A DNA stretch of 64,000 nucleotides from an uncultured Planctomycetia bacterium (GTDB lineage: Bacteria; Omnitrophota; Gorgyraeia; 2-02-FULL-51-18; JAGOUK01). Both the position numbers and the translations under genes were made by a program. The stretch spans positions 62,179 through 126,178 of the forward strand of contig CAYSFB010000007.1 of NCBI GenBank assembly GCA_964430735.1. Reading direction: 5' to 3'. Below, one piece after another: positions 16,666-30,129 of this stretch. Position 1 is the stretch's first letter. Each line of letters opens with the position of its first letter. Under the pieces are notes generated by a model. That model saw only the letters and a program-made list of their open reading frames with translations, searched no databases and was not told the origin of the DNA.

Positions 16666-17936
16666 CCTTCCTCTACAACGTCCTGCTGTTCCTGTACGGA
16701 TTGGCGGTGCTGCCCGTGTTGGCTGCGAAGGGCAAGCTGCGCGACGGGTTCCGCGAGCGCCGGGGACATCTCTCCAAAGAAAATGCCGCGCGCCTCGAAG
16801 GCAGGCGGACGGTCTGGGTTCATGCGGTGAGCGTGGGCGAAGCCCGGCTTGCCATCCAATGGATCGAGCGCCTCAGGCGGAAGGAACCCTCGGTCGTCGC
16901 GGTGCTGACGACGACGACGGCGTCCGCCCAGAAGATCGCGCGGGAAGCGGCCTGCAGCGACGTTGTGGTGACCTATTGCCCCTTCGACTTCAGCTGGATG
17001 ATGGGACGTTTGATCGACGCCGTTCACCCGTCGGCGATCGTGATCCTGGAGACCGAAGTCTGGCCCAACCTTCTGCGCCAGGCGGAGCGGCGGGGGATTC
17101 CCGTAATCCTGATCAATGCGCGGCTTTCCGATAAGGCCTATCCCGTTTACCTGCGCTGGAAATTTTTCGTGCGGCCGGCTTTTGAGCGGATCACGCTCTG
17201 CCTCACTCAAAACGCCGAGCACGCCCGCCGATTCTGCGAAATCGGCGTTCCGCCTGACCGGGTGCGGGTCACCGGTAACATGAAATTCGATCTCGAGGCG
17301 CCTAAAGTCACCGAAACCGTGCGGCTGGCCATGACAGTGTTCCGCGCCGATTCCAAGTCGCTGCTTTTGGCCGCGTCGACACATCCCGGGGAAGAGGAAC
17401 AGCTCGTCAGTGTGTTCGAGGCCGCGCGGGTGCATATTCCGGGGCTCAAGCTCGCGCTGGCGCCGCGCCATCTGGAGCGTCTCGCTGAAGTCGAAGAAAT
17501 CATCCGCCGAAGAGGCCTCAAGTGCGCTAAAATATCGGACTTGGAGCGGCATTATGCGTCGAATGTGGACGTGCTCCTAGTGGACGCTTGGGGTATTCTG
17601 AACCAGCTCTACGCGCTCTCGGACCTTGTGTTCGTGGGCGGAAGTCTCGTGCCGGTCGGCGGTCACAACCTGGCCGAACCGGCCGTCGCCGGTTGTCCGG
17701 TGCTGTACGGACCCTGGATGCAGAACTTCAAGGACATGGACGAGGAGTTCCGGGCGGCCCGCGCGGGCGTCCGGGTCGCAGACGCGCGGGAGCTCGAAGC
17801 CCGCGTGATCGAACTTTTTCAGGATCCCGGAGCGCGCCGGCAGCTGGCCGAACGTTCCCGGGCGGTCGTCGCCGCGAACGCCGGAGCGACCGATCTTAAC
17901 CTAAAGGAAATTTTGACATGCTCATCAAAACGCTGA
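16662..17936 (+). CDS. waaA: 3-deoxy-D-manno-octulosonic acid (Kdo) transferase
   Basis: 424 aa with the [18 protein letters not shown] motif of GT30 KdtA. It joins xerC through an ATGA overlap. Confidence 0.85.
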
Positions 17937-18901
17937 TGCGCCCCTTGCTCGGCTTCGGAGAAAAGCTCTACCGTCAGGGTCTTGAGCGCGACAAGAAGCG
18001 CGCCGGCGCCGCCAAGCGCCTCGACGCGCGCGTGATCTCGGTCGGTAATCTGACTTGGGGCGGAACCGGCAAAACGCCGCTGGTGATGTTCCTGGCCCGG
18101 AGCTTGGCGGAGGCGGGGCAAAAAGTCGCCGTCCTGACCCGCGGATACGGCAACGACGAATGCAAGGAACTTAAAGACCGTCTTCCGGGAATCCCGGTTC
18201 TCGTGGGCAAGGACCGGTACGCCACCGGACAGGAAGCCATTCAGAAGCACGGTGCCAAATGGATTCTGCTCGACGACGGGTTCCAGGTCTGGGATCTGCA
18301 GCGCGACCACGACATCGTGACCGTCAACGCCACCCAGCCCTTCGGCAACGGCCGGCTCATCCCGGCCGGCAATCTGCGCGAGCCCGTGGAAGCCCTTGCG
18401 CGCGCATCCACATTCGTGCTCACACAGTCCTTCCTGGGCCGCCACAACACCGCGCTCATCCGTCAGAAGCTCCGCGAGGTGAATCCCAAGGCGCCGGTGT
18501 TCGAGGCGGACCATCACCCGATCGCGTTTCTGGATTTCCGCAACAACCGTCCGTTGCCGCTCGACATGGTGCGCGACCAGCGGGTCGCGATCCTTTCCGG
18601 TATCGAGGACCCGATGTCGTTCGAGAACACGCTCTCGCGCCTCGGCGCCAAGATCGTGTACGCCGCCCGCTACCGGGACCACCACGCGTTCACGCCGGGC
18701 GACCTGAAGCAGGTCTTTGACGCCTGCAACGAGTGCAAGGTCCGGTACCTCGTGACCACCGAAAAAGATTCCTACCGCCTCGCGAACCTCATCACCGACG
18801 ACCGGCAGCCGACCCGGGTGCTGATGCTCCGGATCGAGATCCGCATGGACGACGAGGACGCCTTTCTCGAGCGATGCCTCTCAGCCGCCGCCAACCGCTA
18901 G
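17918..18901 (+). CDS. lpxK: tetraacyldisaccharide 4'-kinase
   Basis: It carries the P-loop [16 protein letters not shown]. It overlaps waaA by 19 nt. Confidence 0.85.
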
Positions 18902-20838
18902 GCCGGCATTTCGCCGACACCGTACTGCTGGCCGCGCTCCGTTTTCTGCGGCTTCTGCTGCTGCCCTGGCCGATGAGCGTCCGGATCCGCTTCGGCGGAT
19001 GGGCCGGATGGGCGGCCGGCCGCGTTTCCAAGCGCCGCCGTCTGGCGCTCAATAACCTCAAGCGCGCCTTCGCCGGCTCCGGCCGCACCCGCCGCGATCT
19101 CGAGCGAATCCTGGACGATTCCCACCGCGACCTCGGCCGCTCCCTGGTCGAATTCCTGATGAGCCCGTCGATCGATGCAAAGTATTTTGAAACCCATGTG
19201 GAAGTGGAGGGTTCGGAACGTTTGGATGCGCTCACAGCGTCTGGTAAAGGCGCCGTGCTGCTCACGGGCCATATCGGCAACTGGGAATTTTTGAACCTGA
19301 TGGCCGGCGTCCGAGGATATCCGCTGGCCGTTTTGGCCAAGGTTCAGAAGCTCGCGAAGACCGACGCCTGGCTGAACCGCCTGCGCACCCAGCGCGGAGC
19401 AAAAGTCGTGCTGCGCGGCATGGACGTGCGTCAGGTGTATCGGACGCTGGAAGGCGGCGGCCTGGCCGGCATTTTGGCCGATCAAGACGGCGGAAGCGGC
19501 GGCATTTACGCCCCGCTCTTCGGCCGGCAGTCATCCTACCCGCGCGGCGTCGCGCGTTTTTCTTACAAGACGGGCGCTCCGGCGCTTCCTGTGTTTGCCG
19601 TGCGGACGTCGCTGGACCGCCATCGGATCCGCATCGGTGATCCTGTCCGTCCGGCCGCAGGTGAGGCGGAGGACGCATATGAGCAGCGGGTCGTCGCGGA
19701 GTTTTCTTCTCAGCTGGAAGCCATGGTGCGTCAGTATCCGTCTCAGTGGATTTGGGCGCATCGGCGGTGGAAGTCGAGCCCGGACCGGGATATCGCGGTC
19801 CTGGACGACGGACGCAAGGGGCACACGCATCAAGCGCTCGCCGTCGCGGCGCAGGTGGCCGATCGCCGCGCCGGGCATCCTGGATGCAGAGAGACGAGGA
19901 CGGTGCCCGTCGCGTACCGATCATCCTTTGCACGAGCCGTTTTGACCATCTTCGGCATTCTGACCCGCGGACGCCTTTGGGGAGGCATGCGCTGGCTTCG
20001 CTGGGCGCTCACCGACGCGAGTTACGGAGCCCTGTCGGCGGTGCCCGCCGACGTCGTGATATCCTGCGGCAGCTCGACCGAAGCGGTGAACCTGATTCTT
20101 TCGCGGGATTGCGGAGCGCGGTCCTGCTACATCCACAAGCCGCAATTCGGCCGGCGCTTTTTTTCGGCCGTCCTCGTTCCGGGGCATGACCGCGCGGCCG
20201 GATCCAATGTCCTCCAGACGCGGGGGGCGTTGAGTTTTGTGAATCCTGGACGGATGGGGGAGTTGCGCGAACGCGCGCGCGCGGAAGCGCGGATCCCGGC
20301 AGGCGTACGGGCGGCGGCGCTTCTGGTCGGCGGCCCGTCGAAGCATGCCCCCTGGGATCCGGACGCGCTCGAAAAGATATTTTTTGCCTTGCGGGAATTC
20401 AGCCGGGAGCATAAGCTTTATTTGCTTGTTACGACCTCGCGGCGCACGGATCCGGCCGTCGAATCGGCCGTCGAACGGCTTTTCGTCGGTGAAGCCCTGT
20501 GTCCGGTGCTGGTGATGCCGAACCGCTCCAACCCCAGGCTCGCGTACGAGGGGATTCTGGCCGCCGCGGACCTGATCCTGGTGACGGCCGACTCTGTTTC
20601 GATGGTGTCGGAGGCGGTTTCGACCGGCAAGCCGGTCGGGTTGGTCGTCCCGGGTCGTACCTCCGCGGATGGGGCCGGAAAGTTTTTTCGTTTCATGTCA
20701 GATCTTGAGCGCGAAGGCTCAGTGACGCCGGTCAGCCTCGAGAATTTAAACGCGTTTTTGACCCGCGGATCCGTTGATCCGCACACCCGCCAGGCCGGCG
20801 ATGCGATCGCTTTGGCCGCGGACCTGCTCGCAAGATAA
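18874..20838 (+). CDS. fusion protein: N-terminal LpxL/HtrB-type lipid A late acyltransferase plus C-terminal ELM1/DUF1022-like domain (654 aa)
   Basis: This is one uninterrupted frame. The N-terminal half has the LpxL motifs (TGHIGNWEF, H-x4-E). The C-terminal half resembles ELM1-family proteins often encoded in LPS core loci. Its start overlaps lpxK by 28 nt. Confidence 0.7.
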   Translation: MPLSRRQPLGRHFADTVLLAALRFLRLLLLPWPMSVRIRFGGWAGWAAGRVSKRRRLALNNLKRAFAGSGRTRRDLERILDDSHRDLGRSLVEFLMSPSIDAKYFETHVEVEGSERLDALTASGKGAVLLTGHIGNWEFLNLMAGVRGYPLAVLAKVQKLAKTDAWLNRLRTQRGAKVVLRGMDVRQVYRTLEGGGLAGILADQDGGSGGIYAPLFGRQSSYPRGVARFSYKTGAPALPVFAVRTSLDRHRIRIGDPVRPAAGEAEDAYEQRVVAEFSSQLEAMVRQYPSQWIWAHRRWKSSPDRDIAVLDDGRKGHTHQALAVAAQVADRRAGHPGCRETRTVPVAYRSSFARAVLTIFGILTRGRLWGGMRWLRWALTDASYGALSAVPADVVISCGSSTEAVNLILSRDCGARSCYIHKPQFGRRFFSAVLVPGHDRAAGSNVLQTRGALSFVNPGRMGELRERARAEARIPAGVRAAALLVGGPSKHAPWDPDALEKIFFALREFSREHKLYLLVTTSRRTDPAVESAVERLFVGEALCPVLVMPNRSNPRLAYEGILAAADLILVTADSVSMVSEAVSTGKPVGLVVPGRTSADGAGKFFRFMSDLEREGSVTPVSLENLNAFLTRGSVDPHTRQAGDAIALAADLLAR

Positions 20839-20855: not shown

Positions 20856-23006
20856 ATGAACATTCTTCAGATCGTGCCGGAGCTGCGCTCCGGCGGCGTC
20901 GAACGCGGAACCGTGGACTTCGCCAAATACCTGCTCAAGCAGGGCCACGGCTCTCTGGTGGTTTCCGCCGGCGGCGCGCTGGTCGCGGATCTCGAGGCGG
21001 CCGGCGTCCGCCACGTCACGCTGCCGGTTCATAAAAAATCGCTGTTCAGTATCTGGCGCCAGGTCGGCGTCCTGGCGGAGCTTCTGAAAAAGGAAAATAT
21101 CGACCTCGTCCACGCGCGCAGCCGCGTGCCGGCGTGGATCGCTTTTTTTGCGTGCCGCAAAGCCGGCATCCCGATGGTCACCACCTGTCACGGCGTGTAC
21201 AGCACGCATGGATTCAGCCGCATCATGGGTTGGGGGAAGTATGTGATCGTCATCAGCCACGCCGTCAGCCGGCACATGAAAGAAAACTTCAACGTTCCGC
21301 ATCACCGCATCCGCCTCATCCACCGCGGCGTCAATTTGTCCGAGTTCGGTCTGGAAGCGTCCGGCCCCGCGGCTCCCGCGGCTCCGGCCCCTTCCGAAAA
21401 AATCATCGGCATCGTCGGCCGCGTCACCCCGATCAAGGGCCACCGCGTGATGCTCAAGGCGATGGCGCGCGTCGCGCGCGTGTATCCGGACGCCAAGCTC
21501 TGGGTGGTGGGTGATTCACCCCGTCCGCGCTACATGGACGAACTCAAGCTCATGGTGCGCAAGCTCGAGCTTCAGAAGAACGTGGAATTTCTGGGCACGC
21601 GCCAGGATATTCCGGAACTGATGCGCCGGATGAGTCTCCTGGCCGCCCCGGCTGTGGGGGAAGAGGCCTTCGGCCGCGTCCTGATCGAAGCGGGCGCCTG
21701 CGGCGTGCCGGTCATCGCCAGCCGCATTGGCGGCATCGTCGACGTGGTGCGCTCCGGCACGGATGGCATCCTGGTCCCGGCGGGCGACGCGTCCGCGCTG
21801 GCCGAGAACATCATCAGCGTGCTCAAGGAGCCGGAGTACGGCCGCCGTCTAGCGGAGAGCCTGCGCCGCCGCGTCCGTGATGAGTTCAGCGACAAGACGA
21901 TGTTCGAAAAAACCATCGGCGTGTACCGCGAGACGCTTGAACGCAAAAAAATTCTGGTGATCAAGCTCAGCGCGCTCGGCGACGTCATTCTGAGCACGCC
22001 GTCGTTCCGGGCGATCCGCAAGCGTTATCCCCAGGCCCGGATTGTCGCGCTGGTCGAGCGCGCGGCGTATCCGGCCCTCAAGGCCTGCGCGTACGTCGAC
22101 GATGTCCTGTCGTTCGAAAAATTCGACAAAAAGGACGTCGCGTCCATCGTCCGGCTGGGGCGGCTTCTGTCCCGGGAGCAGTTCGACGTGTGTGTCGACC
22201 TCCAGAACAACCGGCTCTCGCATCTTCTGTCCTATCTTTCGGGCGCTCACACGCGGGTGGGGTACGCCAACCGCCGGCTCGACCTTTTTCTCAACCGCCC
22301 GGTCAAGGATCTGCGGCCGGTGGTCGGCCCGGTCGAGCACCAGTTCCAGCTGCTCGAAAACCTGGGGATCGAACATCCGGACACGCGGCCCGAACTTTCG
22401 GCCGACCCGGTCGACGAGGACGCGGTGGGCAAATTCCTGCGCGAAAACTGGTTGGGGGAAAATCAGACCCTGGTCGGCATCAACCCCGGATCCAGCCCGC
22501 TGTGGAAAACCAAACAGTGGCCCCAGGAGTACTTCGTCGAGCTTTGTGACGCGCTCTCGCGCGAAAACGTCCGCGTCGTGATCACCGGAACGAAGGATGA
22601 TTTGCCGGCGGCCGAGGCGATCGCGCGCCAGACGCGCACCCGCCCCATCGTCGCGGCCGGCCGCACCACCATCGGCGAGCTCATCGCGCTGGTCCGTCGG
22701 TGTCGTGTGTTTGTCACGTCCGACTCGGCGCCGATGCACATCGCCACCGCCGTCGGCACGCCCGTGGTCGCGCTCTTTGGTCCCACTGATCCGCGCCGCC
22801 ACGTCGCTCCCGGCCGCGCTCCGATTTCGGTCCTCAACAAGGAAGTGAAGTGCAGCCCATGTTATCTTAAAAAGTGCCCGATCGGCCTCATCTGCATGAA
22901 GCAGATCCTGCCGACCGAGGTCTTTGACCGCGTTCTGGCCTTCCTGCGCCCGGAAGAGGGGAACGCCCGCGCCGTCGAAGAGACGCCGGTCACCGCCGGC
23001 TTTTGA
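20856..23006 (+). CDS. bifunctional glycosyltransferase: N-terminal GT4 (RfaG-like) fused to C-terminal GT9 (heptosyltransferase-like)
   Basis: The GT4 part is residues 1-370 and includes an EAFGRV-type E-x7-E region. The GT9 part starts at ILVIKLSALGDVILSTP and includes ..SDSAPMHIATAVGTP. Confidence 0.75.
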   Translation: MNILQIVPELRSGGVERGTVDFAKYLLKQGHGSLVVSAGGALVADLEAAGVRHVTLPVHKKSLFSIWRQVGVLAELLKKENIDLVHARSRVPAWIAFFACRKAGIPMVTTCHGVYSTHGFSRIMGWGKYVIVISHAVSRHMKENFNVPHHRIRLIHRGVNLSEFGLEASGPAAPAAPAPSEKIIGIVGRVTPIKGHRVMLKAMARVARVYPDAKLWVVGDSPRPRYMDELKLMVRKLELQKNVEFLGTRQDIPELMRRMSLLAAPAVGEEAFGRVLIEAGACGVPVIASRIGGIVDVVRSGTDGILVPAGDASALAENIISVLKEPEYGRRLAESLRRRVRDEFSDKTMFEKTIGVYRETLERKKILVIKLSALGDVILSTPSFRAIRKRYPQARIVALVERAAYPALKACAYVDDVLSFEKFDKKDVASIVRLGRLLSREQFDVCVDLQNNRLSHLLSYLSGAHTRVGYANRRLDLFLNRPVKDLRPVVGPVEHQFQLLENLGIEHPDTRPELSADPVDEDAVGKFLRENWLGENQTLVGINPGSSPLWKTKQWPQEYFVELCDALSRENVRVVITGTKDDLPAAEAIARQTRTRPIVAAGRTTIGELIALVRRCRVFVTSDSAPMHIATAVGTPVVALFGPTDPRRHVAPGRAPISVLNKEVKCSPCYLKKCPIGLICMKQILPTEVFDRVLAFLRPEEGNARAVEETPVTAGF

Positions 23007-23028: not shown

Positions 23029-24162
23029 ATGAAAATCCTGATCCTCGCCAATCACGCCCGACGCGGCGGGATCACGTCGTACGTTTCTGTTTTGGCCCGT
23101 GAACTCGTGCGGCGCGGCCACCGGGTCCTGGTCGTGACCGGCGGCGGCGAAACGGCGCCGCAGTTCGAGGCGGTCGGCGCCGAGCACCGCACCCTTTTTC
23201 TTGATACGAGCTCCGAGCTCAATCCGCGCTTGTGGGGATCCGCTGCCGCTTTGCGCGGGTGGATCGACCGGGAGGGGTGGCAGATCGTTCACGCGCAAAC
23301 CCGGGTCGCCCAGACGGTCGCGGCGATCGCGCTGCGCGGACGGGACGTTCCGCGCGTCACGACCTGTCACGGATTTTTTAAAACCCGCTTTTTCAGAAAA
23401 CTGCTGCCGCTTTGGGGGGATCGTGTGATCGCGATCAGCCGGGCGGTCGAAAAGCACCTGCTGCGCGATTGGGCGCTGGCCCCGAAGCGTACGGCGTATG
23501 TTCCGCACGGTGTCGAACGGTTGTATGCCGACGAGGAGCTTTTGCGGCTGCGGGAGGAAGCCCGCCGCGAACTCAATATTTTTTCCGGTTCCGTCCTCGC
23601 CGGGGCGCTGGGCCGCCTTTCGCCGGTCAAGGGGTATCACGTACTGATTGAAGCGATGGCGCTTTTGAAGGACGTGCCGGTGGAACTGGTGCTGGTCGGC
23701 GACGGACCTGAAGCCCCGCGGCTCGACGAGTCCATCCGCGCGCTGGGCGTCGCGGCGCGCGTCCGGCGGATTCCGGCGATCGCGAATCACCATGCTATAC
23801 TGCATGCGTTCGACATTTTCTGCGCTCCGTCGCTCCAGGAAGGTTTGGGATTGGCGGCGATGGATGCCATGGCGCGGGGTACGTGCGTCATCGCTTCGAA
23901 TGTCGGCGGTTTGCCGGACCTCATCCGCGACGGTGAAACCGGGCGCCTCGTGCCCGCTGGCGACGCGGCGGCGCTGGCCGCGGCGATTCGCGGGCTGGCA
24001 TCCGACGCTGCCGCGCGGACGCGGCTGGGAAGCGCCGGCCGGCGCTTTGTCGAACGGGAATTCACCCTGAACCGGATGATCGAGGGGACTGAGCGCGTTT
24101 ACGCGGAGCTGCTGAGCGCCGCCGAAGTCCCCACCTCTCACAAGGATGCGCATGGCGTTTAA
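23029..24162 (+). CDS. GT4-family glycosyltransferase
   Basis: It starts MKILILANHARRGGITSYV.. and its C-terminal half has the EGLGLAAMDAMARG (E-x7-E) motif. Confidence 0.8.
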   Translation: MKILILANHARRGGITSYVSVLARELVRRGHRVLVVTGGGETAPQFEAVGAEHRTLFLDTSSELNPRLWGSAAALRGWIDREGWQIVHAQTRVAQTVAAIALRGRDVPRVTTCHGFFKTRFFRKLLPLWGDRVIAISRAVEKHLLRDWALAPKRTAYVPHGVERLYADEELLRLREEARRELNIFSGSVLAGALGRLSPVKGYHVLIEAMALLKDVPVELVLVGDGPEAPRLDESIRALGVAARVRRIPAIANHHAILHAFDIFCAPSLQEGLGLAAMDAMARGTCVIASNVGGLPDLIRDGETGRLVPAGDAAALAAAIRGLASDAAARTRLGSAGRRFVEREFTLNRMIEGTERVYAELLSAAEVPTSHKDAHGV

Positions 24163-24949
24163 ATTTTCGTTCAAAAGCTGGATTTCGCGGATCCGGATCA
24201 AGCGCTGGATCATCACGATCGTGCTGCTGGTCGCGGCGTATGCCGCGCTCAACCGTGCGTACATGACGCCGATCCTGATGTACCACCACGTCGATGAGCG
24301 CTGGCAGGAGTGGAAGCTCAGCGTCTCGCCGCACAGCTTTGCCCGGCAGATGGAATTCCTCAAAGCGCACCGCTACAACGTCCTGTCGCTGGGCGAATAC
24401 GTCGACCTGCTCAAAAACAAGCAGCCGATCCCCAAAAAAAGCGTCGTCATCACCTTTGACGACGGGTACGACAACAACTTCACCGAAGCCTTCCCGGTCC
24501 TCAAGAAAATGGGATTTCCGGCAACCATCTTTATCCAGGTCGACGGCGTGGGCCGCCGCGGGTACATGACCTGGGACGACATTGCGATCTTGATCGAAAA
24601 CGGGATCGAAATCGGCAGCCACACGGTCCATCACGGGTTTTTGCCCGACCTTTCCGACGACGAAATGCGGAAGGAGATTGTCGAGTCCAAAGCGATCCTC
24701 GAGAGCCGTCTCCAGCGGCCCATCACGATGTTCAGCTACCCGGGCGGCGGGTTTAACGCCGCCGCGCGCCAGCACGTGATCGACGCCGGTTATGCAGGCG
24801 CGGCCGCCACACATCCCGGCCCCGATTATCCCGACCTGGATCCGTACGCGCTCAAGCGCATCCGCATCAGCCGCACGTCCGACAACCTCTTCGTCTTCTG
24901 GCTTCAGCTGAGCGGGTTTTTCACGCATTATGAGGAATTCCGGGATTAG
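24146..24949 (+). CDS. polysaccharide deacetylase (CE4/NodB homology domain) with an N-terminal TM anchor
   Basis: It carries the NodB motifs VITFDDGYDNN and HTVHH. It is embedded in the glycosyltransferase cluster. Confidence 0.8.
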   Translation: MRMAFKFSFKSWISRIRIKRWIITIVLLVAAYAALNRAYMTPILMYHHVDERWQEWKLSVSPHSFARQMEFLKAHRYNVLSLGEYVDLLKNKQPIPKKSVVITFDDGYDNNFTEAFPVLKKMGFPATIFIQVDGVGRRGYMTWDDIAILIENGIEIGSHTVHHGFLPDLSDDEMRKEIVESKAILESRLQRPITMFSYPGGGFNAAARQHVIDAGYAGAAATHPGPDYPDLDPYALKRIRISRTSDNLFVFWLQLSGFFTHYEEFRD

Positions 24950-25997
24950 CGCCGCGTCCGCCGGTGAATCGCCCCGGATCTTGGTAGTCGGGGTGGATTG
25001 GCTCGGCGACGCCCTGTTCATGACTCCCGTTTTCCGGGCGGTCAAAAAAAAGTGGCCGCAGTCCTTTTTGGCCGTCAGCACCGCTTCCCGCAACCTTGGC
25101 GTCCTCTCGCGCTGCCCCGACCTCGACACTGTGATTCCCTACGACGAAGTCCCGTTTTTGCTCGGCCTGCCGGCTCAGCAGCGGCTGGCTTCGCGTTTCC
25201 AATCTCTGCGCTTCGGTTCGGCGCTTTTTCTTCACCGCTCCTTCACCCGTGCGCTGGCCGCGGCCCGCGCGGGAATTCCAAAACGCCTCGGATTCCGGAA
25301 CACCAAACGCGACTGGCTCATGACGGAGCTGATCGATCCGCCCGCTCCGTCGCTGCATCGGATCGACGCGTACCTGTCGGTGCTCGCCCCGCTCGGGATC
25401 ACCGGAGCCGACCGGACTCCGGCCATCCGGCCGCTGGCCGGCGATCTCCCGGAATGGAATGAAGTCCGTTTGTCCCGGACGCGGTGGGCGGCGGATGACC
25501 GGATCCTCGTGCTGCACCCCGGCGGCAACTGGAACCTCAAACGCTGGCCCGTTGAACATTTTGCAGAAACGGCCCGCCGCGCGTCGGCGGCCGGGTGGAA
25601 GGTGGCGGTGTGCGGTTCGGCGCATGAGGCGCATCTGGGCCGGACGATCGAAGCGGCTGTGTCGGGCGGTTCGGTTGTTTCATTCTGCGGCGCGACGAGC
25701 TTCGGAGCGCTGGTCGGACTTTTGGCGTCCGCCCGTCTTTTGATCTCCAACGATTCCGGTCCGCTGCATCTGGCCGCCGCTCTGGGCACGCCGGTGACCG
25801 GGCTGTTCGGTCCCACGCTGGCGCGTCTCACCGGTCCGGTGGCATCCGGCTCGGTCCGGATCGTTCAAAAGGACTTCGGGTGCGAGCTTCCGTGTCTGTT
25901 CGCGGATTGCCGGGACCGCGTGTGCCTGGACCGTCTGACGGTGGACGAAGCGCTGGCTGCGGCATCCGCCGCACTCGGGGAGCCGGTGGTCCGATGA
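24930..25997 (+). CDS. GT9-family glycosyltransferase (LPS heptosyltransferase-like)
   Basis: It has the GT9 motifs ILVVGVDWLGDALFMTP and ...NDSGPLHLAAALGTP. It overlaps the deacetylase gene by 20 nt. Confidence 0.8.
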   Translation: MRNSGISAASAGESPRILVVGVDWLGDALFMTPVFRAVKKKWPQSFLAVSTASRNLGVLSRCPDLDTVIPYDEVPFLLGLPAQQRLASRFQSLRFGSALFLHRSFTRALAAARAGIPKRLGFRNTKRDWLMTELIDPPAPSLHRIDAYLSVLAPLGITGADRTPAIRPLAGDLPEWNEVRLSRTRWAADDRILVLHPGGNWNLKRWPVEHFAETARRASAAGWKVAVCGSAHEAHLGRTIEAAVSGGSVVSFCGATSFGALVGLLASARLLISNDSGPLHLAAALGTPVTGLFGPTLARLTGPVASGSVRIVQKDFGCELPCLFADCRDRVCLDRLTVDEALAAASAALGEPVVR

Positions 25998-28003
25998 GTA
26001 CGACCGACCGGCGGGTCGTCCGGCAGGCGCTGTTCGTGAGTTTTTCCAATCTCGGAGACGCGATCCTTTCGCTGCCTGCGCTGGACGCGCTGATCAAGCG
26101 TTATCCTGAGGCGAGCGTCGACGTGGTGTGCGGCACCGGAGCCGCGTCGGTTTTTCAGGGGGATGCGCGCATCCGCACGGTCTACGTGGACATCAAGCGG
26201 CCGCTTGCCCGGCGGCTGGAACTTTTTCGCACAATCCATTCGGTCCGGTACGACTGCGTCGTGGACCTCCGCAATTCGCTCTTCCGGTATTTGGGCAAAC
26301 GGGGGAGTTCCGGATGGAACGGCGGCTTCGTTCATATGCGGGACCGCCATCTCAACGCCGTCCGCTCGCTGGGCGCCAACGTCGAACCATACCGTTTTAC
26401 TTCCAACCGGTCGATGGATCCGGGCGCGCTCTCGGGTCGGACCGCGGTGATCGCTCCCGGCTCCAAGTCGACGACCAAAGAATGGATGGCTGACCGGTTC
26501 GCACGGCTGGCCGACCGGCTGATCCGCGAGGACGGTTTGGACGTGATCTGGATCGGAGACGAGCGCGAACGGGGGAGGATTGACGAGATCCGCGCCCAGA
26601 TGACCGAGCCGAGCGCCAATTTTTCCGGGAAGCTGAGCTGGCCTGAAACGTTGGAGCTGATCAGGGGTTGTGCCGTCGTGATCACGAACGATTCCGCACC
26701 CCTCCACGCCGCCGACCAGATCGGCAAAAAAACGGTCGCTATTTTCGGGCCCACGGATCCCGCGCGTTACGGTCCTCAGCGCAGTCCGTCCGGGGTCGTC
26801 TTTAAAGGAATCGCCTGTTCCCCCTGCGGCGAAGCCCAGTGCCGTTACGGCCACCGGCAATGTCTCACCGACATCACGGTAGAGGACGTGTATCGAACCG
26901 CCCGGCAGCTTCTGGAGGACACTCCGGAGCGCGAGAGTCCCAACGTTCTCGTCGTCCGTCTGGACCGTATCGGAGATGTGATGCTGTCGTTTCCGGCGGT
27001 CGCGGCCATCCGTCAGAAGTTTCCGAGCGCCCGCATCACCTGGCTCGTCCGTCCGGCCGCGCAGGAATTGGCCGAACGGTGTCCCGATTCCGATGAAGTG
27101 CTCGTCTACGATTATTCGCGCTCCGGCCGTCATCGCGGCGCGTTGGGCGCGCTCGCGCTGGTGCGCCAGTTGGCAAGGCGGCGATTCGACATGGCGTTTT
27201 TGCTGCATCCTACGCTGAGGACGCATCTGACCGCGGCGTTGTCCGGAATCCCGTACCGCGCGGGGTACGACGTTCGGGGCGGCTGGCTTCTGACACACCG
27301 GATCGCCGATCTGCGGCGCGACGGCTACCAGCACGAAAGCCGCTACGCGCAGGACGTCGTCCGCGCGCTCAATGTCCCTCCGACGGACGCCGTTCCCCGG
27401 CTGATGCTGTATGCCGAAGACACGATTGCCGCGTCTGCGCTGCTCCGCGCTTCGGGATTGGATCCGGAAAAGCCCTACGCGGTCCTGCATGCGGCCGCTT
27501 CCTGCAAATCCAAATGCTGGCCCGCCGATTCTTTCGCAGCGCTCGCCAACCGTTTGCGGTCGGAGCGGGGGCTTCAAATCGTCCTGGCGGGCGACCCCTC
27601 GAGCGCGCCGGTCAACGCGGAGCTGGCTGCGCGGATCCCGGGCGCGGCGGATCTCTCGGGCCGGACGCCGCTCATGACGCTGGCGGCGTTGTGCCGCTCG
27701 TCGGCCATCGTGGTTTCGAACGATTCCGGCCCCGCTCACGTGGCCGCCGCAGCCGATGCGCGCGTACTCAGCATCTTCGGCCGCAAGGAAAAGGGGTTGT
27801 CCGAACGGCGCTGGAGCCCTCTCGGCTCCAAGACGCGCGTCCTGCGCAAGGATGTCGGATGCGTCGTGTGTCTGGCGGACCGTTGCCCGATCGGTTTTGA
27901 GTGTCTTCGCGCGCTCGGTGCGGATGAAGTTTTTCAGGCAGCTTCCACTCTGCTTTCCTCAACGTCTCCCGACGCTTCGCCCCTCTCCCGGCAACCCGCT
28001 TAA
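25994..28003 (+). CDS. tandem double-GT9 glycosyltransferase (two heptosyltransferase-like domains in one 669-aa protein)
   Basis: Domain 1 carries ALFVSFSNLGDAILSLPAL..NDSAPLHAA. Domain 2 carries VLVVRLDRIGDVMLSFPAV..NDSGPAHVAAA. It joins the upstream gene through an ATGA overlap. Confidence 0.75.
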   Translation: MSTTDRRVVRQALFVSFSNLGDAILSLPALDALIKRYPEASVDVVCGTGAASVFQGDARIRTVYVDIKRPLARRLELFRTIHSVRYDCVVDLRNSLFRYLGKRGSSGWNGGFVHMRDRHLNAVRSLGANVEPYRFTSNRSMDPGALSGRTAVIAPGSKSTTKEWMADRFARLADRLIREDGLDVIWIGDERERGRIDEIRAQMTEPSANFSGKLSWPETLELIRGCAVVITNDSAPLHAADQIGKKTVAIFGPTDPARYGPQRSPSGVVFKGIACSPCGEAQCRYGHRQCLTDITVEDVYRTARQLLEDTPERESPNVLVVRLDRIGDVMLSFPAVAAIRQKFPSARITWLVRPAAQELAERCPDSDEVLVYDYSRSGRHRGALGALALVRQLARRRFDMAFLLHPTLRTHLTAALSGIPYRAGYDVRGGWLLTHRIADLRRDGYQHESRYAQDVVRALNVPPTDAVPRLMLYAEDTIAASALLRASGLDPEKPYAVLHAAASCKSKCWPADSFAALANRLRSERGLQIVLAGDPSSAPVNAELAARIPGAADLSGRTPLMTLAALCRSSAIVVSNDSGPAHVAAAADARVLSIFGRKEKGLSERRWSPLGSKTRVLRKDVGCVVCLADRCPIGFECLRALGADEVFQAASTLLSSTSPDASPLSRQPA

Positions 28004-28359: not shown

Positions 28360-29379
28360 ATGGACAAGATCCAATCGATGGAATATTCGCGCCTGAAGCA
28401 GGTGGTGAATTCGTTCAACCGCGTGCGCGTCCTCGTGATCGGGGATTTGATTCTGGACGAGTTTATCTGGGGCAAGGTGTCCCGCATATCTCCTGAGGCG
28501 CCGATCCCGGTTGTTTGGGTGAAGTCCGAAAGTTTTGTCCCCGGCGGTGCATGCAATGTCGCGAACAACCTTCGCTCGCTCGGCGCCAAGGCCGACGTGA
28601 TCGGCGTGATCGGCACTGAGGGGCGGGGCCGCATGCTCATGGAGCTGCTGCAGCAGAAGGGGATCGGCACGTCCGGCATCCTCAAAGACGCCTCGCGCCC
28701 AACAACGCTCAAGACCCGGGTAGTTGCGCATCACCAGCAGGTGGTCCGCATCGACCGGGAGGAAATAACCCCGCTTTCCAAGGATATTCAACGCCGCATC
28801 CTCGCGGACGTGCGCAAGCGGCTCAAGCATTTTGACGCCGTGTGCGTCGAAGACTACGGCAAAGGCGTGATCACGCCGGAGCTCGTCCAGGAGATCGTCC
28901 GCCTGGCCCGCCGTCAGGGAAAAATCATCACGGTCGATCCCAAGGAGAGCCACCTGTCGTATTACCGCGGCGTCAGCTGCATCACGCCGAACAACCACGA
29001 AGCCTCCACGCTCTCCAAAATCGTGATCAAAGACGACGCGTCGCTCAAGCGCGCGGGGCAAAAACTTCTGCGCGTCCTCGCGTGCGAAAACGTGCTCATC
29101 ACGCTCGGCGAAAACGGGATGTGTCTCTTTCAAAAGGGTCTCAAACCTGTTAAAATTCCGACTTTGGCGCAGGATGTGTTCGACGTTTCGGGCGCGGGCG
29201 ACACGGTGATCGGAACCTACACCCTGGCGCTCGGATCCAAGGCCGCTCCGATCGAAGCGGCGCATCTGGCCAACTGCGCGGCCGGCATCGTGGTCGGCAA
29301 AGTCGGTACCGCGACCGTCACGCAGAGCGAACTTTTGGCCCGTGTCCGTCAACTGTTGTCCGTCACCTCGGAAGCCTAA
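28360..29379 (+). CDS. hldA: D-glycero-beta-D-manno-heptose-7-phosphate kinase (RfaE domain I / HldA-type; no adenylyltransferase domain)
   Basis: It carries the PfkB-family motifs GDLILDEFIWGKVSRISPEAPIPVV and ..DVSGAGDTV. At 339 aa it is kinase-only length. Confidence 0.8.
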   Translation: MDKIQSMEYSRLKQVVNSFNRVRVLVIGDLILDEFIWGKVSRISPEAPIPVVWVKSESFVPGGACNVANNLRSLGAKADVIGVIGTEGRGRMLMELLQQKGIGTSGILKDASRPTTLKTRVVAHHQQVVRIDREEITPLSKDIQRRILADVRKRLKHFDAVCVEDYGKGVITPELVQEIVRLARRQGKIITVDPKESHLSYYRGVSCITPNNHEASTLSKIVIKDDASLKRAGQKLLRVLACENVLITLGENGMCLFQKGLKPVKIPTLAQDVFDVSGAGDTVIGTYTLALGSKAAPIEAAHLANCAAGIVVGKVGTATVTQSELLARVRQLLSVTSEA

Positions 29380-29394
29380 AAGCACACAACCCAC

Positions 29395-30129
29395 ATGCAA
29401 ACCATCGGCGTCATTCCCGCACGGCTCGGATCCACGCGATTGGCCCGCAAGGTCCTGATGGACCTCGGCGGGAAGCCCGTGATTCAGCACGTGTACGAGC
29501 GCACCCGCAAGGCGCGCCTCCTCGATGACGTGATCGTGGCCTGCGACGACGACGAGATCGTATCCGTGGTCCGCGGCTTCGGCGGCAAGGCCGTTCTCAC
29601 CTCCAAACACCACACGACCGGCACCGACCGCCTCGCCGAAGTCGTCAACGACCTCGACGTGCAGACGATCGTGAACATCCAGGGCGACGAGCCCTTCGTG
29701 AATCCGTTGACCATCGACGACCTCGTGGGCCTGATGCAGAAGGAAGCCGGCACGGTGATGGCCACCGTCGTCAAAAAGTCCACGAGCTTCGAGGACTTCA
29801 AGAAGCCCGACGTCGTCAAGGCCGTCCTGGACGACGAAGGCCACGTGCTTTATTTTTCTCGGATGCCGATCCCGACTTTTTTGAAGGAAGGGGAATCGTT
29901 CTACAAGCACATCGGCCTGTACGCCTTCACCAAGGAATTTTTGTTCACGTTTAAAAAAATGCCCCCCTCCTTCCTGGAGCGGCACGAACGCCTCGAGCAG
30001 CTGCGCGCGCTGGAAAACGGCTACCGCATTCGGGCGATCGAAACCAAATTCGAAACCATCGGCATCGACACTCCTGAAGATCTGGAGCGGGCCCGCGCCG
30101 TTCTGGCCAGCCAGGAAGCCGCCGGTTAA
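29395..30129 (+). CDS. kdsB: 3-deoxy-manno-octulosonate cytidylyltransferase (CMP-Kdo synthetase)
   Basis: It carries the IPARLGSTRLARKVL motif and is 244 aa. Confidence 0.9.
   Translation: MQTIGVIPARLGSTRLARKVLMDLGGKPVIQHVYERTRKARLLDDVIVACDDDEIVSVVRGFGGKAVLTSKHHTTGTDRLAEVVNDLDVQTIVNIQGDEPFVNPLTIDDLVGLMQKEAGTVMATVVKKSTSFEDFKKPDVVKAVLDDEGHVLYFSRMPIPTFLKEGESFYKHIGLYAFTKEFLFTFKKMPPSFLERHERLEQLRALENGYRIRAIETKFETIGIDTPEDLERARAVLASQEAAG

Follow-up and report, generated by a model that had tools for sequence, protein, structure and literature searches.

A GT4-GT9 fusion glycosyltransferase encoded in the lipid A and inner-core operon of Omnitrophota

The closest described counterparts of the protein examined here come from lipopolysaccharide (LPS) biosynthesis in Escherichia coli. 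These are the heptosyltransferases WaaC and WaaF, of glycosyltransferase (GT) family 9 (GT9), and WaaG (also RfaG), a retaining GT4 enzyme of the core that acts straight after WaaF in the classical pathway. Proteins in which two complete GT modules share one chain and make successive additions to a lipid-linked acceptor are known as well: WbdA of E. coli O9a has two GT4 modules, and KpsC has two beta-linked 3-deoxy-D-manno-oct-2-ulosonic acid (Kdo) transferase modules. Here we analyze a gene found in a 64,000-nucleotide stretch of DNA (hereafter, the window; contig CAYSFB010000007.1, positions 62,179 to 126,178) that was deposited under the name of an uncultured Planctomycetia bacterium and is placed by GTDB in the Omnitrophota. 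Its product of 716 amino acids joins a retaining-type GT4 module to an inverting-type GT9 module in a lipid A-core setting, whereas WbdA and KpsC each use modules of a single family and act in O-antigen or capsule synthesis.

The GT9 half resembles E. coli WaaF (Protein Data Bank (PDB) entry 1PSW) and WaaC (2GT1/2H1H/6DFE) in its GT-B fold, its PF01075 domain, and its signature residues, and its gene likewise shares an operon with genes of the ADP-heptose pathway and of Kdo and lipid A synthesis. It differs from both in forming the C-terminal half of a two-enzyme protein and in bearing a four-cysteine motif, and its sequence similarity is modest to WaaF (E = 5.9e-23) and weak to WaaC (9.4e-5). 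The closest solved relative of this half is the Veillonella parvula GT9 protein 3TOV (phmmer E = 6.6e-32, 25-26% identity), an uncharacterized structural-genomics entry that differs in being a stand-alone single module of 349 residues. For the GT4 half, the closest solved relative is 7MI0 from Rickettsia africae (phmmer E = 6.8e-60 over residues 2-362); unlike the fused protein, 7MI0 and its GT4 kin of ≈390 residues have a single module, and they are uncharacterized and do not fix the function of this half. E. coli WaaG (2IV7/2IW1) is like the GT4 half in being a retaining GT4 core enzyme with a GT-B fold and an E-x7-E motif. A first-pass annotation, made from the sequence of the window, had gone further and called the GT4 half RfaG-like, which overstates the resemblance. 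The similarity to WaaG is local and weak (E = 1.6e-7 over residues 200-308; phmmer, 2iv7_A), no WaaG-specific NCBIfam model is found among the top 25 matches of the fused protein, and the two are not orthologues. Because WaaG follows WaaF in the classical pathway, it serves instead as the functional analogy behind the idea of consecutive steps discussed below.

Two complete GT-B modules in one polypeptide

The open reading frame (ORF), including its ATG start and strand, is as the first-pass annotation had given it (Table 1). An AGGA sequence lies ≈13 nucleotides 5' of the ATG, and the GC content at third codon positions is 0.82, in a window with an overall GC content of ≈63%. A protein identical over its whole sequence (P0001, 100%) is present in public assemblies (NCBI, Logan), and the gene call on the Logan contig is identical to the ORF of the window. 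Pfam places the N-terminal lobe of the GT4 module at residues 13-162 (PF13439, E = 7.7e-29, 101.3 bits against a cut-off of 28.5) and a GT1-type C-terminal lobe at residues 179-337 (PF00534, E = 2.2e-39, 135.2 bits against 26.4), and the crossover helices at the C-terminal side of the module span residues 326-362. In the GT9 half, PF01075 matches residues 432-676 (E = 2.1e-40, 139.1 bits against a cut-off of 22). The NCBIfam heptosyltransferase II (HepII) model TIGR02195 extends this match, aligning residues 365-693 with model positions 1-334 of 339 at 154.8 bits against a cut-off of 134.6. Because this alignment begins at model position 1, the GT9 module includes its first strand and is complete. 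A single polypeptide thus holds both modules in full, GT4 and GT9, and the first-pass annotation had recognized each of them, the former by its E-x7-E motif.

The modules meet at YRETLERKK365/I366LVIKLSALGD376. The same junction had been named in the first-pass annotation, whose approximate position of nucleotide 21960 lies near the codon of I366 at 21951-21953. Between the halves, the window sequence contains no stop codon, no ribosome-binding site, and no start codon. An A7 homopolymer at 21945-21951 sits exactly on the junction codons and is what would favor an artefact in which an indel error in this run joined two adjacent genes, the kind of error that the first-pass annotation had named as able to refute the fusion. 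Such an artefact is hardly conceivable. We scanned one genome per GTDB species with the peptide EAFGRVLIE, the most conserved search pattern, and obtained 80 loci; together with the window's own contig, the gene is a single uninterrupted ORF in 81 of 81 loci, which are independent and differ in nucleotide sequence. Two apparent non-fused exceptions (L015 and L036) gave single ORFs on direct translation. In an alignment of 121 homologous proteins, there are no indels between residues 335 and 392, and the fusion recurs in hundreds of protein clusters drawn from NCBI, JGI, ENA, and Logan. One ORF in all 81 loci and the absence of indels from all 121 proteins exclude a sequencing error at the junction. 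The A7 run is harmless here, yet assemblies built from error-prone reads could split the gene at this position. At many loci, matches of ≈3.2 kb suggested an inserted domain; these proved to be an adjacent paralogous gene, GT4b, merged with the match.

Among 60 homologues, the hallmark residues show no variation in either half. In the region of the GT4 motif, these are E270, F272, G273, R274, and E278, and elsewhere in this half they include G13, G14, E16, R189, and K194; by analogy with PimA and WaaG, we take R189 and K194 to bind the donor diphosphate. The key residues of heptosyltransferases, in the numbering of E. coli WaaC, are D13, K192, which contacts O5/O6 of the heptose, and D261-(T/S)-(G/A)-x-x-H266 (PMC3559599). 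The fused GT9 carries this full published set as D376, K553, and D623 to H628, with K553 proposed as the counterpart of K192 by motif position (WxxKxWP) rather than by structure-based alignment. F641-G-P-T644 is invariant as well. Mean column conservation is 0.74 in the GT4 half, 0.72 in the GT9 half, and 0.26 in the C-terminal tail. Near the end of the GT9 half is the four-cysteine motif, and the pattern C-x2-C-x4-C-x5/6-C is common to all four GT9 modules of the operon, namely the fused GT9, the stand-alone GT9b, and the N- and C-terminal modules of a GT9-GT9 double protein (GT9c-N and GT9c-C). These cysteines may form a putative metal (zinc) site.

An AlphaFold2 model built from a 60-sequence alignment agrees with the expectation of the first-pass annotation that there would be two GT-B folds. 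The model comprises two alpha/beta GT-B modules with a mean predicted local distance difference test (pLDDT) score of 90.0 and a predicted template modeling (pTM) score of 0.86. The pLDDT exceeds 90 across most of residues 1-362, and low confidence is restricted to the inter-lobe loop of the GT4 module (168-174) and the last 16 residues. DSSP assigns two successive Rossmann-pair modules, in which the GT4 helix at 346-362 leads directly into the GT9 strand at 365-369 with no linker. In Foldseek searches of the PDB, the GT4 half matches 7MI0, 4XSU, 6N1X, and 3OKA with target-normalized template modeling (TM) scores of 0.76-0.85, the best being 7MI0 (0.85, 32% identity), and its structural matches include Anabaena HepE, BshA, and PimB'. 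The GT9 half matches 3TOV (target-normalized TM 0.80-0.86), WaaF (1PSW, 0.84), and WaaC (2H1H, 0.80). Foldseek found no solved PDB chain that spans both halves, the query-normalized TM being at most 0.46.

Because a pTM of 0.86 is high for a two-module protein, the relative placement of the modules is predicted with confidence. In GT-B folds, the final helix packs back on the N-terminal, acceptor-binding lobe of its own module. As the final helix of the GT4 module joins the first strand of the N-terminal lobe of GT9 without a linker, the two acceptor lobes are predicted to be neighbors. This topological argument predicts that they lie side by side in a fixed geometry.

A conserved operon and a widespread architecture

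The fused gene belongs to a lipid A, Kdo, and inner-core operon that also contains a gene of the ADP-heptose pathway (Table 1). Downstream of kdsB follow pyrG, kdsA, and kdsD, with lptC and lptB further on. This gene order is kept in 80 genomes, and it persists around two fused relatives, P0172 and P0200, that are only 29-30% identical to the window protein. In 70 of 75 loci, the sequence directly 5' of GT4-GT9 encodes an ELM1-like domain. A GT4b gene separates the fusion from GT9b in 64 of 68 loci, and a CE4 gene is found in this interval in 43 of 68.

Table 1 Features of the fused gene and of its operon, in window coordinates
Feature	Positions	Strand	Basis
waaA	16662-17936	+	NCBIfam/Pfam scans, gene calls, synteny
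lpxK	17918-18901	+	NCBIfam/Pfam scans, gene calls, synteny
LpxL-ELM1-like fusion (PF03279 + PF06258)	18874-20838	+	NCBIfam/Pfam scans, gene calls, synteny
GT4-GT9 coding sequence	20856-23006	+	ORF list; 716 aa plus stop, ATG start
GT4 module (aa 1-365, retaining-type GT-B)	20856-21950	+	Pfam PF13439, PF00534, PF13692; DSSP on AlphaFold2 model; Foldseek; phmmer
E-x7-E motif, E270 to E278 (EAFGRVLIE)	21663-21689	+	read from sequence; conservation in 60 homologues
Domain junction, K364-K365/I366	21945-21953	+	sequence; indel check in 121 homologues; AlphaFold2 model
GT9 module (heptosyltransferase-type, aa 366 to ≈697)	21951-22946	+	PF01075, TIGR02195, PDB sequence matches, Foldseek
D376 (GD motif), counterpart of the catalytic D13 in WaaC from E. 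coli	21981-21983	+	G375 and D376 invariant; PMC3559599
K553, proposed counterpart of WaaC K192	22512-22514	+	invariant; PMC3559599
Heptosyltransferase signature, D623-S-A-P-M-H628	22722-22739	+	motif scan; D623, P626, H628 invariant
Four-cysteine motif, C666-x2-C669-x4-C674-x5-C680	22851-22895	+	4/4 Cys invariant, 60 homologues
GT4b	23029-24162	+	domain scans, gene calls, synteny
CE4 polysaccharide deacetylase	24152-24949	+	domain scans, gene calls, synteny
GT9b (stand-alone)	24930-25997	+	domain scans, gene calls, synteny
GT9-GT9 double protein (a small ORF follows)	25994-28003	+	domain scans, gene calls, synteny
Heptose-7-phosphate kinase, hldA-type	28360-29379	+	TIGR02198, 389.5 bits against cut-off 345
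kdsB	29395-30129	+	domain scans, gene calls, synteny

Throughout the Omnitrophota, the gene as a rule takes the fused form, which is also present in Armatimonadota; the fusion is uncharacterized but not rare. The homologue search suggested by the first-pass annotation returned at least 120 Omnitrophota clusters at 90% identity, with lengths of 679-743 amino acids, both sets of Pfam domains, and 48-100% identity to the query. A further search covered 1.84 billion representatives at 50% identity; among its best 150 matches, at least 46 are collinear full-length GT4-GT9 proteins, reaching down to 26% identity to the query. The view of the first-pass annotation that GT4/GT9 fusions are uncommon is contradicted by these numbers, by the presence of the fusion in all 81 loci, and by its occurrence in several genomic contexts. 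Since the architecture is abundant and annotated in public data, that view is true only of cultured model organisms.

Most of the 80 scanned loci are labeled Omnitrophota. The minority labels are "uncultured Planctomycetia/Planctomycetales," "uncultured bacterium," "bacterium," and "Ca. Elulimicrobium," and the metagenome-assembled genomes L003, L007, L010, L020, L033, L039, L075, and others have the complete Omnitrophota-type operon and fusion under a Planctomycetia/Planctomycetales or Elulimicrobium label. In the NCBI lineage, "Candidatus Elulimicrobium" falls within the Patescibacteria group. These labels are at odds with the gene order that the genomes share and probably stem from how the submitters classified them.

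Outside this group, a separate clade represented by P0243 (29-31% identity) comprises at least 85 clusters, in which the only organism names are "Armatimonadota bacterium." A locus of this clade, L085, has the order msbA-waaA~lpxK-lpxL-GT9-[GT4-GT9]-GT4 (a tilde marks a fusion, and brackets enclose the GT4-GT9 gene). Its stand-alone GT9 has the heptosyltransferase I (HepI) model as its best match (137.9 bits), and its fused GT9 has the HepII model. In reciprocal comparisons of the Omnitrophota and Armatimonadota fusions, each half finds its counterpart as best match, which is suggestive of a common origin of the two sets of fusions but not decisive, as the stand-alone Armatimonadota GT9 also best matches the fused GT9. 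Another fusion, P0195, occurs in a genomic neighborhood unrelated to the operon of the window. Stand-alone GT4 proteins of ≈390 residues are 45-63% identical to its GT4 half, and those with organism names come from Alphaproteobacteria (Holosporales, Magnetovibrio, Terasakiella). Among the matches in two or three stretches, the Pfam scan covered five candidates for a reversed GT9-GT4 order (P0153, P0162, P0204, P0205, and P0215), and all were rejected as GT4-GT4 or triple GT4 proteins, one with a CE4 domain.

Names given by the JGI and NCBI pipelines include "lipopolysaccharide heptosyltransferase II" and [quoted passage not shown] Literature searches turned up no paper that deals with GT4/GT9 fusions or with LPS core enzymes of Omnitrophota. 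Neither the families nor the folds nor the pathway are new, and the architecture itself is abundant and machine-annotated, yet undescribed as far as the literature searched shows.

Proposed function and alternatives

Because the protein has two complete modules, keeps the signature residues of each, and is encoded in a lipid A/Kdo/core operon, the natural reading is a bifunctional core glycosyltransferase. We consider it probable that the protein is a bifunctional LPS inner-core enzyme, with two complete and catalytically competent GT-B enzymes in each chain. The GT9 half would transfer heptose to the growing Kdo-lipid A core by an inverting mechanism of the WaaC/WaaF type, and its donor, by analogy and given the hldA-type kinase in the operon, is most likely ADP-heptose. 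The GT4 half, by a similar analogy, is most likely a retaining transferase that would add a hexose or an N-acetylhexosamine from a nucleotide sugar, in the manner of WaaG, BshA, or PimA. Both modules would work on a common lipid-anchored acceptor from the cytoplasmic side of the inner membrane, and the fixed geometry predicted for their lobes may favor passing the product of one site on to the other. The first-pass annotation had proposed that the polypeptide adds two consecutive core sugars. Its two-module core glycosyltransferase stands as the natural reading, and the consecutive order is a more tentative proposal, with chances that we put a little below even. Should the steps be consecutive, the leading order would be a HepII-like addition followed by a WaaG-like one, because the fused GT9 best matches the HepII model and a HepI-like GT9 gene lies just upstream of the fusion in L085.

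Several observations weigh against this assignment of steps and, in part, against the coupling of the two activities. All four GT9 modules of the operon best match the HepII model. GT9b also passes TIGR02195 (158.6 bits) and is nearer to E. coli WaaF (E = 2.4e-31) than the fused GT9 is (5.9e-23), and NCBIfam and PDB scores gave no unambiguous answer when used to assign the four modules to HepI, HepII, or HepIII. The GT4 half and WaaG are not orthologues, and the nearest relatives of this half, of the 7MI0 type, are uncharacterized; for these reasons, and given the stand-alone kin of P0195, the acceptor of this half could be Kdo instead of heptose. Other fusions in the operon vary between genomes, so the GT4-GT9 fusion may reflect adjacency in a compact operon and not kinetic coupling. 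To our knowledge, the family is biochemically uncharacterized, and the Omnitrophota are a phylum with neither a cultured model nor a known LPS structure.

The point about variable fusions can be taken further. Both modules could be active core glycosyltransferases that catalyze non-consecutive steps without channeling, their fusion being a by-product of operon compaction in which neighboring genes whose stop and start codons overlapped became joined. Variable fusions do recur among the neighboring genes: an ELM1-like domain is joined to LpxL in 60 of 61 loci and to LpxK in three genomes, and the two halves of the GT9-GT9 protein are fused in 27 related loci and encoded by separate genes in 24. 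GT4b-GT9b (L087), WaaA-LpxK (L085), GT4-GT9-GT9, and GT4 + GT9 + LpxB fusions add to this picture. These variable fusions are, however, less uniform than GT4-GT9, which is fixed in all 81 loci with a linker-less junction that is invariant in 121 sequences and with a confident prediction of how the modules are placed (pTM 0.86). The fixed junction and the confident placement therefore point to structural constraint after the fusion arose, and we regard a mere by-product of compaction as somewhat unlikely, while giving it more weight than any of the other alternatives. That one module is a dead scaffold, a pseudo-glycosyltransferase that positions or stabilizes the active half, is considerably less probable. 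A half can drift, as the Armatimonadota-type protein P0243 illustrates in having a GT4 half without the conserved first Glu of E-x7-E. Within the clade of the window, however, a dead half is unlikely because no hallmark residue varies in either half and the two are conserved to the same degree.

An acceptor outside LPS, whether in protein O-heptosylation of the TibC/Aah type, in an exopolysaccharide, or in a small-molecule thiol of the BshA/MshA type, is more improbable still. BshA and HepE do appear among the best structural matches of the GT4 half, and this half also gives sub-threshold matches to the stp2, EpsE, and BshA models, but these NCBIfam scores fall far under their cut-offs, and no TibC/Aah model is present among the top NCBIfam matches of the fused protein. 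The position of the gene, embedded between lpxL and core glycosyltransferase genes in an operon that is kept in 80 genomes and around deep relatives, likewise argues for an LPS acceptor. A bifunctional inner-core glycosyltransferase thus remains the preferred reading. A bolder version of it, which we consider speculative and unlikely to hold in full, is that GT4-GT9, the LpxL-ELM1-like protein, and the GT9-GT9 protein constitute an inner-core "assembly line" with GT4-GT9 as its core unit, in which a defined heptose-hexose disaccharide would be made by a rigidly paired retaining hexosyltransferase and inverting heptosyltransferase through direct hand-over between their adjacent acceptor lobes, the pairing having been repeatedly selected and not merely compacted. 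The GT4b-GT9b fusion of L087 and the Armatimonadota fusions would in that case reflect repeated selection for the pairing.

If both halves act on the same acceptor, the protein would be a naturally occurring synthase for two steps of the LPS core, found in an uncultured phylum. Such an enzyme could offer a compact tool for the chemo-enzymatic synthesis of heptose-containing core fragments and a structural model for the placement of two peripheral GT-B enzymes on a membrane relative to one lipid-linked substrate. The fixed fusion would also act as a "Rosetta stone," arguing that the stand-alone GT4 family of the 7MI0 type acts in the lipid A-core pathway beside GT9, a link that would help to annotate many uncharacterized genes of this type. 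Otherwise, the fusion is an annotation-level observation.

Further fusions and neighboring genes

The LpxL-ELM1-like gene directly upstream of GT4-GT9 is matched by related genes in L072 (5869-8004), L028, L059, and L084, in the last of which a separate ELM1-like gene is found. LpxL (PF03279) is a late acyltransferase of lipid A, PF06258 is the Pfam domain named "mitochondrial fission ELM1," and no NCBIfam model matches the ELM1-like domain. Proteins with PF06258 are predicted lipooligosaccharide glycosyltransferases in the OC loci of Acinetobacter baumannii (PMC4172580). Of the leads that this operon offers, the persistent linkage of the ELM1-like domain to lipid A enzymes may be the more informative one.

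The GT9-GT9 protein of the window (669 amino acids) consists of two complete tandem GT9 modules, each with a GD motif, a D-S-(A/G)-P-x-H signature, and the four-cysteine motif. GT4b, which follows the fused gene, is 33% identical to the fused GT4 half and has the CE4 deacetylase gene directly 3' of it. This pairing recalls what we take to be a similar arrangement in Klebsiella, where WabH (a GlcNAc transferase) and WabN (a deacetylase) provide a route to core glucosamine.

The contig L087 (5830-10154), whose operon is laid out as in the window, encodes two GT4-GT9 fusions in a row. The first, an orthologue of the fused gene of the window, has halves that are 49% and 44% identical to those of the window protein. 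The second is an independent join of GT4b to GT9b, with a longer linker and without a CE4 gene. L085 (1070-7719), from the clade whose named members are Armatimonadota, encodes a WaaA-LpxK fusion of 814 amino acids. Larger combinations are represented by P0146, a GT4-GT9-GT9 protein of 1081 amino acids, and by P0383 and P0386, proteins of ≈1100 amino acids with GT4, GT9, and LpxB (PF02684) domains.

Upstream, the LPS operon is preceded by a block with the order aroC-aroK-dprA-(thiS)-topA-xerC-waaA (L001, 1-7081; L082, 1-7010; L088, 1-5022). This block is kept near fused proteins that are ≈30% identical to the window protein, and the aroC-to-waaA synteny is unusually stable across such divergent genomes.

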